Source: a virus
Lineage: Duplodnaviria > Heunggongvirae > Uroviricota > Caudoviricetes
Length of the DNA: 7,448 bases
Reading direction: 5' to 3' (one strand)
Virus record (IMG/VR): IMGVR_UViG_2645728091_000018
Positions 297 through 4,114 of this stretch are shown here, piece by piece (the first letter of the stretch is position 1; every line of letters starts with the position of its first letter). Made by a program: the position numbers and the translations under genes. Under the pieces are notes generated by a model. It saw nothing but the letters and a program-made list of their open reading frames with translations. It was not told the DNA's origin and ran no database searches.

Positions 297-1337
297 CTAA
301 GCTGTCGCGACATTTTTGCGACATTTTAAGGGGTTAAGTCGCACGGCATCTTCAAGGTGGCTTGGGGCGAAATGGGCATAACGCATTGTCATAGTGATGT
401 CAGCGTGGCCGAGAATTTTTTGCAGAACCAGAATGTTTCCGCCGTTCATCATAAAGTGGCTGGCAAATGTATGGCGCAGTACATGGGTAAGCTGGCCTGA
501 GGGGAGTTCAATGCCTGCGCGTTCCAGAGCAGAGCGGAAAGCGTTATAGCAGGGTTTGGGGAACAGAGCGCCTTTCGTATCAGGCAATTCGGATAAAAGT
601 TCATCATCAAGGGGGATTGTTCTGTTGCGCTTCCCTTTGGTTTTGACGAACGTGACTTTACCGCCCGCGATCTGAGAGCTTTTCAGCGTTGCCGCTTCAT
701 TCCATCTTGCGCCGGTCGCAAGACAGATTTTTACGACTAGCTCTAAGTATTTTACTTTGCTTCGTTTGCATTCCAGCAAAAGCCGCTCAATTTCTTCAGC
801 AGTGAGGAAAGCCATTTCGGTTTCATCAGTACGATACTGCCTGACGTTTTCCAGTGGGTTGGGGGCTGACCATTCACCGATTCGTTTCAGTTCGTTGAAC
901 ATAGCCAGAAAGTAAGCATGTTCAAGGTTCATTGTTTTCGGGGAAACCTTGGATACTCTGTTAGTGCGGGCATAATGCCCATCAAGCCGTTTTGCGCGGT
1001 AGGCCGTGAACAGCTGGGCATTAAACTCTGTAGCTAGCGGGAATCCCATGCATTCTGCCGCCCAGGTCATAGCGTCTTTACGCTTTTGACCATTGCGCAA
1101 AGCTACGCCGTGGCGTTCATACCACATTGTGATCAGGTCTATTAAAGTTCGTTTGTCCTTCCCTTCACCCAGCCAGGGCGCACTGTCTACTTTCTGAAGC
1201 GTATGGTTTTCAAATGCCAGGGCTTCCCCCTTTGTGGCAAATTTTTTACGTATGCGCTTCCCGTTCTTACCATTACTACGGTTGACGGTGTAGAAGTCGG
1301 CGATCCATTCGCCTGTCGGAAGTTTACGAACACTCAT
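297..1337 (-). CDS. int: Phage tyrosine integrase (P2/186 Int family)
   Basis: ORF-track 349-aa ORF 297..1346; I prefer the ATG at 1337 (MSVRKLPTGEW...), the track start at 1346 is TTG. C-terminal catalytic signatures HVLRHTFASHF and MTMRYAHF (active-site Tyr) are typical of tyrosine recombinases. Position adjacent to and co-directional with the repressor matches 186/P2. Confidence 0.93.
   Translation of the reverse strand: MSVRKLPTGEWIADFYTVNRSNGKNGKRIRKKFATKGEALAFENHTLQKVDSAPWLGEGKDKRTLIDLITMWYERHGVALRNGQKRKDAMTWAAECMGFPLATEFNAQLFTAYRAKRLDGHYARTNRVSKVSPKTMNLEHAYFLAMFNELKRIGEWSAPNPLENVRQYRTDETEMAFLTAEEIERLLLECKRSKVKYLELVVKICLATGARWNEAATLKSSQIAGGKVTFVKTKGKRNRTIPLDDELLSELPDTKGALFPKPCYNAFRSALERAGIELPSGQLTHVLRHTFASHFMMNGGNILVLQKILGHADITMTMRYAHFAPSHLEDAVRLNPLKCRKNVATA
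307..327. repeat. Tandem direct repeat GCGACATTTT (two copies, 11-bp period) at the 3' end of int
   Basis: GCGACATTTT at 307..316 and again at 318..327, read directly. Overlaps the last codons of int (KCRKNVATA). Confidence 0.5.
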
Positions 1338-1338
1338 T

Positions 1339-1917
1339 TCATTCAATCGTCAGAACAATGCGGCCGATGATTTTTATATCGTCAATACCGCAGTCAAAAG
1401 CCATACCTACGCCGCTTACTCTAACCTTTCCCACAGGGATGCGTGTTAGTGTTCTAACGCTGGTTTTACCTTCAACTTCGACAAGCCAAACATCGTCATA
1501 AACTTCAGTAAAGTGTTGATCAACAATGTATTGCATTGTGTTATCAATCACACAGATAGGATTCTGCGGTAAAGGTTTGCCAGGTAAAAAAGTAACCTTA
1601 TCAAGCATTAGGAAACCAGACTCATAAAGTTTTCCGTCCACAATCTTCTTGCGTGGCAGTTTCATGATGTCTAATTCGTCATCGTTAAACTTTCTACCTT
1701 GTCCAGTCGCAAGCCATTCCAGAGTAGCTCCTGTTTCAGCCATACATCTAACAACGATATCAGCTGGAAAAAAATCCCTCTTATACCGGTTAGCCAGACT
1801 GCTGCTTGCTATATCAAGATGCTCAGCTAGGGCTAGTTTTGTGTTGAATCCATACGCTTGGATAACTCTATCTAGTACCTCAGATCCGCCCTGGGAAAAC
1901 TCAATTTGTAGGTTCAC
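1339..1917 (-). CDS. cI: CI-type immunity repressor (186 CI-like; N-terminal HTH, C-terminal oligomerisation domain)
   Basis: 192-aa ORF immediately upstream of int with a 1-nt gap. N-terminus VLDRVIQAYGF...LAEHLDIASSSLANRYKR resembles the 186 CI HTH region as I remember it. GTG start at 1915..1917 with AGGT about 9 nt upstream. Confidence 0.8.
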   Translation of the reverse strand: MNLQIEFSQGGSEVLDRVIQAYGFNTKLALAEHLDIASSSLANRYKRDFFPADIVVRCMAETGATLEWLATGQGRKFNDDELDIMKLPRKKIVDGKLYESGFLMLDKVTFLPGKPLPQNPICVIDNTMQYIVDQHFTEVYDDVWLVEVEGKTSVRTLTRIPVGKVRVSGVGMAFDCGIDDIKIIGRIVLTIE

Positions 1918-2036
1918 GAAAGTATTACCTTGAAATATTGCGCAAAGTGAGTTTAAACTCCGCTTTGTAGGTTTAAGTGAATATTGACAGTTACAGCCCT
2001 GTATTGCCGTACAGGTTAACTTATGGAGTTTGCCTC
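1918..2036. promoter_or_regulatory. Lysis-lysogeny switch region (expected convergent pR/pL promoters and operators)
   Basis: Intergenic region between divergently oriented cI and apl. Contains TTGACA at 1984..1989 and an operator-like palindrome CCTGTA-N6-TACAGG (1998..2015) with an extra TACAG at 1992..1996. I could not pair a convincing -10 with any -35, so promoter positions are not called. Confidence 0.5.
1999..2014. promoter_or_regulatory. Palindromic operator candidate CTGTATTGCCGTACAG (fits LexA core CTGT-N8-ACAG; may instead be a CI/Apl operator)
   Basis: Read directly: CTGT at 1999..2002, ACAG at 2011..2014. Flanking AT/GT partly match the SOS-box consensus, but the GC-rich centre is atypical. 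Confidence 0.3.
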
Positions 2037-2288: not shown

Positions 2289-2792
2289 ATGTTTGATTAC
2301 CAGACCTCTAAACATGCGCACTTTGATGCGGCTTGCCGAGCATTTGCAATTGAGCACAATCTGGAAGATGTGGCCGCTGCCGTTGGTATGAGGCCGCAGA
2401 TCCTGCGCAACAAACTGAACCCAGCGCAACCGCACCGCCTGACCTGTGATGAGCTTTTGGCTATCACGGATTACACAGAAGATGCGCGTTTACTTGATGG
2501 GATGTTAGGTCAGATTAACTGCCTTCCATCCGTGCCGGTAAACAATGCTACTGAAGCCAACATGCAACTGTGTGCACTTAGCGCCACTGCATGTGTGGGC
2601 GCGATTGCTGGGGAAGCCGTATCAACTGGTCATATGACCGCAGCCCGCCGTACTCAAATTCTGGATCGCGCCCGCGATGCAATCCGTAGCTTATCCGTGC
2701 TGGCTTATACAGTTGAAAGCCGTATTCACTCTGCGCCGGTTCTGGCTGCTGCGGTGGATCTGGTCACAACCAACGCTACCGGCCTGATGTGA
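2289..2792 (+). CDS. cII: CII-like lysogeny-establishment regulator (186 CII family)
   Basis: 167 aa; N-terminus MFDYQTSKHAHFDAACRAF...LRNKLNPAQPH closely resembles 186 CII as I remember it. GGGAGAGG RBS 8 nt upstream; position after apl matches 186 gene order. Confidence 0.85.
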   Translation: MFDYQTSKHAHFDAACRAFAIEHNLEDVAAAVGMRPQILRNKLNPAQPHRLTCDELLAITDYTEDARLLDGMLGQINCLPSVPVNNATEANMQLCALSATACVGAIAGEAVSTGHMTAARRTQILDRARDAIRSLSVLAYTVESRIHSAPVLAAAVDLVTTNATGLM

Positions 2793-2801
2793 GGGAACAC
2801 C

Positions 2802-2975
2802 ATGAAAGCGTTTGTCACTTACCTGAAAAAAGAATCACCAGCCATGCAGTTGCCGAGTGGTTCAACGGGCTGGATAGAACTGCCGAACGGTCAGCGCTGG
2901 AACCCTGGCCACATGTACAAATTCAATGGCCAGCAGCCGCGCCGCCCGTGGTGGTGTCGTCTGATGGGGTTATAG
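2802..2975 (+). CDS. Small hypothetical protein (57 aa), not in the ORF track; occupies the 186 fil-like position
   Basis: ATG at 2802 with GAGGGA RBS 5 nt upstream, overlapping the cII stop. Translation MKAFVTYLKKESPAMQLPSGSTGWIELPNGQRWNPGHMYKFNGQQPRRPWWCRLMGL, stop TAG 2973..2975. Codon usage is host-typical, whereas the overlapping track frame (2789..2983) has rare AGG/AGA/ATA codons and a GTG start with no SD. Confidence 0.5.
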   Translation: MKAFVTYLKKESPAMQLPSGSTGWIELPNGQRWNPGHMYKFNGQQPRRPWWCRLMGL

Positions 2976-2983
2976 GGGGCGTT

Positions 2984-3412
2984 ATGGCGATTAGCCAGGA
3001 ACAGCAAAAGCGCGGGCTGGAGCATTTAAAACAGATCCGCCGCAAATACTTCAGCGAAAGCAGTGAGGCCGCTGAATGGTGGGACAACTTAACACCAGAG
3101 TGGCGGGGTGTAGTGCTTCATGCTGCTGCGGTTACATCTGGTACTGGGGCATTTAAAGCCCACTTAAGCAAGTGCTGCTGGCGGGAGCTTTATGAACGCC
3201 TGGGCTATCGGGACATGATTCAACTGCGCCAGGGCATTTCACGGGCGCGGTTAACGTTTGAAGGTTTCGGCAGTTTACGTGACAGCGATTTTTCAAAGCG
3301 CACCGCGAACCGCCCGATCAAAAAGGCACATCCAATTTATAGCAGTAGCGGGGTGCAGATGGTGATCGCGCCTCATATCGTCCATAAGTTCCAGCAACAG
3401 GGGAATCACTAA
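2984..3412 (+). CDS. Hypothetical phage early protein (142 aa)
   Basis: ATG at 2984 (MAISQEQQKRGLEHL...) with a GGGGG run just upstream; same frame as the distal part of the track ORF 2789..3412. Stop TAA overlaps the next start (TAATG). No recognisable catalytic motif. Confidence 0.6.
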   Translation: MAISQEQQKRGLEHLKQIRRKYFSESSEAAEWWDNLTPEWRGVVLHAAAVTSGTGAFKAHLSKCCWRELYERLGYRDMIQLRQGISRARLTFEGFGSLRDSDFSKRTANRPIKKAHPIYSSSGVQMVIAPHIVHKFQQQGNH

Positions 3413-3813
3413 TGACCATTATTTCCGTTGAGGGTAAATCGTTGGGGGCTGAACTGGCTGTGTGGGGTGTCCCGCATAACTACGCTGTAGCGTTTGCAGC
3501 GAAAAGTACCAGTAAAAATGGCCGCATCGCTTTGCATCCGTTCTTCTTCAATGACACTGAACACATGACAAATCCGCGTCACTGGCTGGCTATCAATGCC
3601 GCTTTCTGGTGCTGCGTGTATCGCGAAGCGGAAAGCAAAGAAGCCCAGATAGAAGCGCTGGCGGGGATTCGTGCAATTTTCTATACAGCCGGGGCGCTGG
3701 GTGTTGGCGAGATAAAAGCGCTGATCCAGGAGTGGTGGCGGACAACCTATGAGCTTCACCTGATTCCGGCACCGAACTACTCAGCCGCCACAGTACAACC
3801 CACTTTTCACTAA
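3412..3813 (+). CDS. Hypothetical phage early protein (133 aa)
   Basis: ATG at 3412 overlapping the upstream stop, AGGGGAA 7 nt upstream; intact 133-aa ORF. No recognisable motif; function unknown. Confidence 0.6.
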   Translation: MTIISVEGKSLGAELAVWGVPHNYAVAFAAKSTSKNGRIALHPFFFNDTEHMTNPRHWLAINAAFWCCVYREAESKEAQIEALAGIRAIFYTAGALGVGEIKALIQEWWRTTYELHLIPAPNYSAATVQPTFH

Positions 3814-3830
3814 TTAACAGCCTGAATTTT

Positions 3831-3866
3831 TTGGCCACGGTTCAAGTGGCCGGGGATTCTTTTGCC
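3831..3866 (+). terminator. GC-rich hairpin followed by a U-rich tract; possible weak intra-operon terminator or attenuator
   Basis: GGCCAC (3833..3838), 7-nt loop, GTGGCC (3846..3851), then GGGGATTCTTTTG. Sits in the only sizeable intergenic gap (3814..3880) of the early operon. Stem is short and the T-run is interrupted. Confidence 0.25.
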
Positions 3867-3880
3867 TTAAGGAAACCAAA

Positions 3881-4114
3881 ATGCACATGACACGTCAGGA
3901 TTTACCCGCAACAAAATCAGGCACCGACCTGCTGGCCATGCTCACCAAAGCCACGCAGGAAGGTAAAGCCGCAGCTGCTGATCTGTGTTCCACCCGTCTG
4001 GATAAGTTAGCCACTCATGCGGCCAATGAAGGTTTAAGCGCAACGGAAATCGTTGAGTTAATCCGCGAAGAAGCCGCAGCGATTTGCAGCAAAGGAGGTG
4101 CGGCATGGAATTGA
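3881..4114 (+). CDS. Small hypothetical Ala-rich helical protein (77 aa); possibly like the small orf80-type proteins of P2-like phages
   Basis: ATG at 3881 with AAGGAAA upstream; stop overlaps the start of the exonuclease gene by 10 nt. Family assignment is memory-based and unverified. Confidence 0.5.
   Translation: MHMTRQDLPATKSGTDLLAMLTKATQEGKAAAADLCSTRLDKLATHAANEGLSATEIVELIREEAAAICSKGGAAWN

Follow-up and report, generated by a model that had tools for sequence, protein, structure and literature searches.

A Fil-family gene overlapped by a longer, probably accidental, open reading frame in the early region of a 186-like prophage

Two overlapping reading frames follow cII in a 7,448-nucleotide stretch of DNA from a Caudoviricetes record (IMGVR_UViG_2645728091_000018; hereafter the window), raising the question of which of them encodes a protein and what that protein might do. 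The ORF list of the window contains a plus-strand frame of 207 codons that runs from a GTG at 2789 to 3412. A second plus-strand frame, of 57 codons from an ATG at 2802 to 2975, enters that list once the length threshold is dropped under the default of 60 amino acids, and its absence from the ORF track is thus explained by its size. A sequence-only reading of the window had argued that the long frame is probably two genes and that the smaller one, a missed gene, lies where phage 186 carries fil.

The window covers the left end of a 186/P2-like prophage (Peduoviridae) together with its early region. A close phage relative is Escherichia phage ESSI2_ev015 (Peduoviridae, Quadragintavirus), to which it shows 97.8% DNA identity across 1.7 kb, and of 5,426 complete E. 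coli genomes 23 contain prophages that match the 701 bases around 2802-2975 at 90-97% identity. The gene order (int, cI, apl-like, cII, fil, ..., DUF2732, exonuclease, Dam, A) is identical to that of phage 186. The genes lying behind the DUF2732 gene encode the exonuclease, a DUF3850 protein, the Dam methylase and the replication endonuclease A, while the counterparts of cII in homologous prophages are annotated as 'phage regulatory CII family protein'. The features on which the argument turns are these.

297-1346, minus strand: integrase gene
1339-1917, minus strand: CI repressor gene
1930-1959, plus strand: candidate sigma-70-like promoter upstream of the apl-like gene (consensus scan, 9/12 matches)
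ending at 2258, plus strand: apl/cox-like gene
2289-2792, plus strand: cII, 167 aa (Pfam PF06892, Phage_CP76, 159.6 bits)
2789-2983, plus strand: probable non-coding extension in the frame of the 142-aa gene, overlapping fil (stops in relatives, pN/pS 2.0)
2791-2795, plus strand: Shine-Dalgarno sequence GAGGG of fil, read from the sequence, 6-7 nt 5' of ATG 2802
2802-2975, plus strand: fil-family gene, 57 aa, ATG start and TAG stop (PF10893, PHROG, frame tests, RefSeq boundaries)
2974-2979, plus strand: ribosome-binding site AGGGGG of the 142-aa gene, read from the sequence, 4 nt 5' of ATG 2984
2984-3412, plus strand: 142-aa gene (PHROG 33841)
3412-3813, plus strand: 133-aa gene (PHROG 3935, 3.4e-52)
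3828-3856, plus strand: terminator-like hairpin with a T-run, just 5' of the DUF2732 gene (scan; consensus match only)
3881-4114: DUF2732 gene

The candidate promoter at 1930-1959 occupies the position of pR in phage 186 and is likely to be the promoter of the early lytic operon that contains fil. By positional analogy, the hairpin at 3828-3856 matches the annotated tR1 of 186 and the terminator of P2. Tight translational packing continues further into the operon, where the 142-aa gene's TAA stop and the ATG of the 133-aa gene (3412-3813) share bases (TAATG). At the other end of the window a minus-strand ORF of 42 aa at 1-129, MNEFKRCMRVFSHSPFKVRL..., corresponds to mntS. In the homologous E. 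coli prophage of NZ_CP063503, mntS lies ~170 nt from the integrase gene, and the end of the window prophage with its attachment site is therefore expected at ~130-296. The 186-like prophage is inserted beside mntS.

The start of the 57-codon frame is preceded by a Shine-Dalgarno sequence (GAGGG, 2791-2795) that is interlaced with the end of cII, the TGA stop of which (2790-2792) falls inside the Shine-Dalgarno region. The motif TGAGG(G/A) is present 5' of the fil start in all homologues, the phage 186 version being TGAGGTG. Indeed the whole junction of cII stop, Shine-Dalgarno sequence and ATG, which reads TGAGGTGcgtATG in phage 186 and TGAGGGAACACCATG in the window, has the Shine-Dalgarno sequence overlapping the cII TGA in both, a layout that suits translational coupling. 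The 186 fil start has been used as a working translational lacZ fusion (PMC7708051), indicating that this start is active in 186. The GTG at 2789 also overlaps the cII stop, and the sequence upstream of it, CCGGCCTGAT, contains no purine-rich stretch. Codon usage separates the frames as well. The first 65 codons of the 2789 frame include AGG once, AGA twice, ATA once, CGG once, CCC twice and TCG once; in the 2802 frame a single codon of the rare set (ATA) occurs. Log-odds trained on the window's own long genes were highest for the 2802 frame of the fil region (+12.4); the 2789 frame reached +3.1, and the third frame fell to -5.7. The TAG stop of fil (2973-2975) is followed by an 8-nt spacer (2976-2983) and then by ATG 2984, the start of the 142-aa gene. 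In all these respects (the rare AGG, AGA and ATA codons, a GTG without a Shine-Dalgarno sequence, a strong ribosome-binding site and host-typical codons in the small frame, and a second ATG gene 8 nt beyond it) the sequence-only reading had described the locus accurately.

That reading had placed the small protein in the position of 186 fil, which also proves correct, and the likeness extends from position to homology. The gene is the first after cII in the rightward early operon, as in phage 186, and its product scores 39.8 bits (E=3.5e-10) with the Pfam family PF10893 (Phage_186_Fil, formerly DUF2724), for which the cutoff is 25. The match covers residues 1-37 only of the protein and profile positions 1-34 of 56. 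For comparison, 186 Fil scores 84.1 bits, Yersinia phage Fil 77.8 bits and the Cronobacter ESSI-2 homologue 46.3 bits, and PF10893 is present in all 77 homologues found. The best PHROG match is phrog_7623 (3.8e-30), a family of unknown function, followed by phrog_816, 'cell division inhibitor', at 4.5e-8. No Pfam or PHROG family other than PF10893, phrog_7623 and phrog_816 was matched by the 57-aa protein, and NCBIfam and PADLOC contained no match for it or its two downstream neighbours. BLASTP aligned the protein with 186 Fil at 39% identity over 33 aa (residues 3-35; E=6e-7), and Yersinia phage Fil bridges the two, being 49% identical to the window protein and 48% identical to 186 Fil.

What is conserved in the family is a core that comprises residues 1-42 of the 57-aa protein and carries the motif GWIELPNGQRWNP. 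In 22 diverse members, including 186 Fil, three residues (G23, W24 and G30) do not vary at all, and conservation reaches at least 90% at L8 and P35. The N-terminal pattern F..LLK.QSP..QL...G-W-I....G.R.W.P of the 57-aa protein is common to 186 Fil (NP_052282); both proteins are small and basic and share an N-terminal core of the form ..QSP...GWI...G.RW.P, but the 186 protein is longer (75 versus 57 aa). When 1.84 billion cluster representatives were searched with a Fil profile, 32 matches were returned, almost all of them standalone proteins of 29-110 aa, the exceptions being two weak and probably spurious matches in long proteins. By this search the Fil family is small and narrow. Two further candidates were rejected. 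P2 Orf78 (56 aa), which occupies the same slot in P2, gave no BLASTP alignment and an hhalign probability of 1%. A Roseicella aquatilis locus from a genome scan was spurious, as it matched the pattern PRRPWWCR only, in a genome of 72% GC, and contained an internal stop. Cronobacter phage ESSI-2 (NC_047854.1) encodes a 63-aa Fil homologue with a PF10893 score of 46.3 bits (~25136-25327, reverse strand; L014 1501-1692) that is unannotated in its RefSeq record. Downstream of it are gp37, gp38 and gp39, three 'hypothetical protein' CDSs on both strands that all overlap one another and look like over-calls.

The 57-codon gene was missed by the ORF track, but it cannot be called a missed gene in any wider sense. 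In all 23 matching complete E. coli genomes the RefSeq PGAP annotation lists this 174-nt CDS under the name 'phage filamentation protein Fil family protein', and in the E. coli loci inspected this CDS is followed by a 429-nt hypothetical CDS. The record of phage ESSI2_ev015 has fil annotated at the same boundaries (YP_009877600.1), and the exact 57-aa sequence of the window is already in NCBI under the Fil family name. The fil gene of the window is thus already known, annotated and named in public databases. The Fil proteins of E. coli and Citrobacter prophages and of Quadragintavirus (WP_047657784.1, YP_009877600.1) are 96-98% identical to it, with the same boundaries and the same neighbours on both sides, and the window allele differs from these RefSeq relatives in having Cys52 where they have Arg.

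Beyond the core, the members of the family diverge. Residues 43-57 of the window protein form a basic, Arg/Trp-rich tail, PRRPWWCRLMGL, whereas the C-terminal half of 186 Fil is hydrophobic, GFLIIRIVHFVIKGVKHVTR, and unrelated to it in sequence; nothing beyond residue 35 was aligned between the two proteins by BLASTP. As tails differ widely among accepted Fil members, we read the missing C-terminal likeness to 186 Fil as a difference between subfamilies. The gene occurs in forms of 57, 64 and 75 aa, of which that of the window is the shortest. Comparison of window 2930-2990 with the homologous tails of five further loci (L004, L005 and L011-L013) indicated that the 57- and 64-aa forms differ by a 2-nt indel just 5' of the ribosome-binding site of the next gene, which brings a TAG into frame. 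The 64- and 75-aa forms read through the G-run of that ribosome-binding site, overlap the next gene by 11 nt and end in ..GGRYG(H/D/N/Y). All Fil tails are cationic, with a charge of +3 to +8. The possibility that the tail forms an amphipathic, membrane-targeting helix was not supported, as in seven of seven members the best 11-residue hydrophobic moment did not exceed that of shuffled sequences (fraction at or above the observed value 0.10-0.84).

Two gene products that join the Fil N-terminus, in frame, with the beginning of the 142-aa protein, P0097 (110 aa) and P0072 (79 aa), were found at L017 1501-1833 and at 1501-1740 of both L018 and L019. They were rejected as Rosetta-stone evidence: cI and cII are also fragmented in L017, and the 142-aa gene is split in L018 and L019, such that these calls seem to reflect assembly errors, or prophages that are decaying or frameshifted, and not true fusions. 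In a collection of ~15 billion proteins the 57-aa Fil and the 142-aa protein fall in one 90%-identity cluster ('cluster 1'; 195 members of 57, 60 and 142 aa), which may be a database artefact produced by fused or frameshifted gene calls that bridge two unrelated proteins.

We consider it nearly certain that the two-gene model is right and that the 57-aa protein belongs to the Fil family, and highly probable that 2802-2975 is a genuine Fil-family gene, third in the early lytic operon (apl/cox-like, cII, fil), whose product is expected by homology to inhibit division. For the short-tailed 57-aa subfamily taken by itself, division inhibition is somewhat probable. The phage 186 record states of Fil that 'overexpression blocks cell division', and this was the sole basis found for the 186 phenotype. 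It could therefore be argued that the window encodes a real member of the family that does not inhibit division but has another early-lytic role, for example in modulating some other host process or the 142-aa protein. The 39% identity to 186 Fil covers just 33 residues and leaves the C-terminal halves unaligned, phrog_7623 ranks ahead of the division-inhibitor family phrog_816, and fil is tightly linked to the 142-aa gene, with an 11-nt overlap in the loci that encode 64- and 75-aa forms. It should be emphasized, however, that the conserved part is the core common to the whole family and that the tails vary freely, so that a common function is most likely to be carried by the core, which the window protein retains. 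Moreover, the gene shares both its genomic slot and its translational junction with 186 fil. We view a role other than division inhibition as rather unlikely.

The remaining alternatives concern the 2789 frame and were addressed by comparing 14 loci: the window and 13 homologous loci, which derive from E. coli, ESSI2-type phages, a Salmonella phage, Buttiauxella, one further bacterium and two Kluyvera species, and from Cronobacter phage ESSI-2 and Yersinia phage vB_YenM_324. Such a comparison with homologous prophages had been set beforehand as the test of which frame is coding, and it found the 2802 frame conserved and the 2789 frame not. In nine of 12 homologous loci a stop within the fil region interrupts the frame of the 142-aa gene; only the window and ESSI2_ev015 have this frame open as far back as a GTG at the cII stop. 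E. coli prophages ~97% identical to the window have just 25 or 3 open codons 5' of the ATG of the 142-aa gene, and a Kluyvera georgiana locus has an open extension of 68 codons with a TTG start. Across the ungapped first 42 codons of fil, the variable columns are distributed 5/3/27 over positions 1/2/3 of the 2802 frame in the ten closer sequences (chi-square p=2.5e-7), and 16/15/33 in thirteen sequences. The pooled Nei-Gojobori pN/pS is lowest for the 2802 frame, at 0.19, as against 1.65 for the frame next to it and 2.0 for the 2789 frame. On these measures the 57-aa ORF is under purifying selection. Searches of Pfam and PHROG gave no family match for the 65-aa extension of the 207-aa ORF, and the exact 207-aa product is absent from the collection of ~15 billion proteins, in which the exact 57- and 142-aa products are both present. 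Consistent with a shorter downstream gene, the 107 listed homologues of the 142-aa protein measure 82-158 aa, the full-length ones 136-146 aa, and none is near 207 aa.

Both frames could in principle be used, the 2789 frame specifying an N-terminally extended isoform of the 142-aa protein as a young overprint on fil in the window and ESSI2_ev015. These two are the most closely related of the sequences and exactly the ones in which the extension is open, and a third locus, Kluyvera georgiana L007, also has the open extension noted above. This proposal is very improbable, however, as the GTG overlaps the cII stop and has no Shine-Dalgarno sequence before it, the extension is rich in rare codons and is not conserved in near-identical prophages, and the extended protein does not occur in the ~15 billion-protein collection. 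That the 207-aa ORF is instead a true single gene, with the 57-codon frame a chance ORF within it, draws on its being open over 207 codons in the window and ESSI2_ev015 and on a weakly positive codon score (+3.1) over the fil region, but is scarcely credible and is already refuted by the comparative data, given the stops in nine of 12 loci, including the ~97% identical E. coli prophages, the pN/pS of 2.0 as against 0.19, a GTG start without a Shine-Dalgarno sequence, an extension that carries AGG, two AGA and ATA and matches no family, a product missing from ~15 billion proteins and downstream homologues that do not exceed 158 aa among the 107 listed.

The stops in relatives, the pN/pS values, the codon-position pattern, the lengths of the downstream homologues and the absence of the long product from the protein collection together argue for the two-gene model that the sequence-only reading had put forward. 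The 207-codon ORF is, judging from these comparisons, an accidental open frame of this particular sequence, and the true downstream gene starts at ATG 2984. In this window the longest-ORF track wrongly joins fil to the gene that follows it, and the correction agrees with curated annotation; in itself it reveals no new biology.

The start of that downstream gene is itself well conserved, a G-run followed by CG(T/C)(T/A) and ATG being present in 12 loci. Its 142-aa product matches PHROG 33841 at 7.9e-40, a family whose function is unknown, and has no Pfam family, as is true of nearly all its listed homologues, almost none of which contains a Pfam domain. The exact sequence is in NCBI as a MULTISPECIES hypothetical protein, and the protein is conserved in Enterobacteriaceae prophages. 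An AlphaFold2 model is helical, with a pLDDT of 67 that rises to ~80 in the core (residues 30-90); no fold in the PDB matched it with E<1, and no PDB sequence was matched by profile. The slot is that of dhr in phage 186 and of B in P2. In 186, fil overlaps dhr, whereas in the window fil is followed by this unrelated gene. Candidate identities as P2 gpB or 186 Dhr were rejected, as neither gave a significant BLASTP alignment and the hhalign probabilities were 0.2% (gpB) and 0.4% (Dhr). In Yersinia phage vB_YenM_324 (NC_070917.1; L015 1707-2081) the gene that follows fil carries the annotation 'replication protein GpB'. That protein shows no BLASTP similarity to P2 gpB; it is related, though distantly, to the 142-aa protein of the window, at 27% identity (tblastn E=9e-7). 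Its annotation looks positional, not homology-based.

How might the Fil protein of this prophage act? The rightward early transcript most probably serves as the mRNA of the gene and, because the Shine-Dalgarno sequence of fil overlaps the cII stop codon, ribosomes finishing cII could re-initiate at fil. By homology with 186 Fil, the protein is predicted to halt division of the host cell, whether infected or induced, through a block of septation during lytic development. In this scheme the 42-residue N-terminal core, with G23, W24 and G30 in the motif GWIELPNGQRWNP, would make contact with some component of host division, the cationic Arg/Trp tail playing an assisting part. An AlphaFold2 model of the 57-aa protein, built on a 45-sequence alignment, had a pLDDT of 61 and a pTM of 0.23 and contained a two-strand hairpin only, at approximately residues 25-33. 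A search of PDB sequences with the Fil alignment profile returned nothing meaningful (best E=0.21). Mechanistic studies of a Fil protein were not found in the open-access literature, and the literature searched reported no host target for the family.

Small early or prophage-encoded proteins whose expression leads to filamentation include lambda Kil (PMC3961180), T7 Gp0.4, Qin DicB and Rac KilR; Kil and Gp0.4 are reported to act on FtsZ and DicB through MinC. The likeness of the window protein to these is a functional analogy only, in that it matches no solved structure and no other Pfam or PHROG family. It has to be considered whether the short-tailed Fil subfamily works by a route unlike that of the other small division inhibitors of phages: its target might lie in the divisome or the envelope without being FtsZ, or it might work jointly with the tightly linked 142-aa protein. 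The core is predicted to form little beyond a beta-hairpin, and the Arg/Trp tail is unrelated to that of 186 Fil. On present sequence and model evidence a distinct mode of action appears unlikely; if true, it would constitute a new inhibitory mechanism, as no target has been reported for the Fil family. That the window protein serves in host takeover is inferred from a homology to 186 Fil that is only partial, with 39% identity over 33 residues. Members of the Fil family are candidates for such a role, and the fil gene of this prophage may be regarded as a reasonable, if unsurprising, candidate for causing filamentation of its host.
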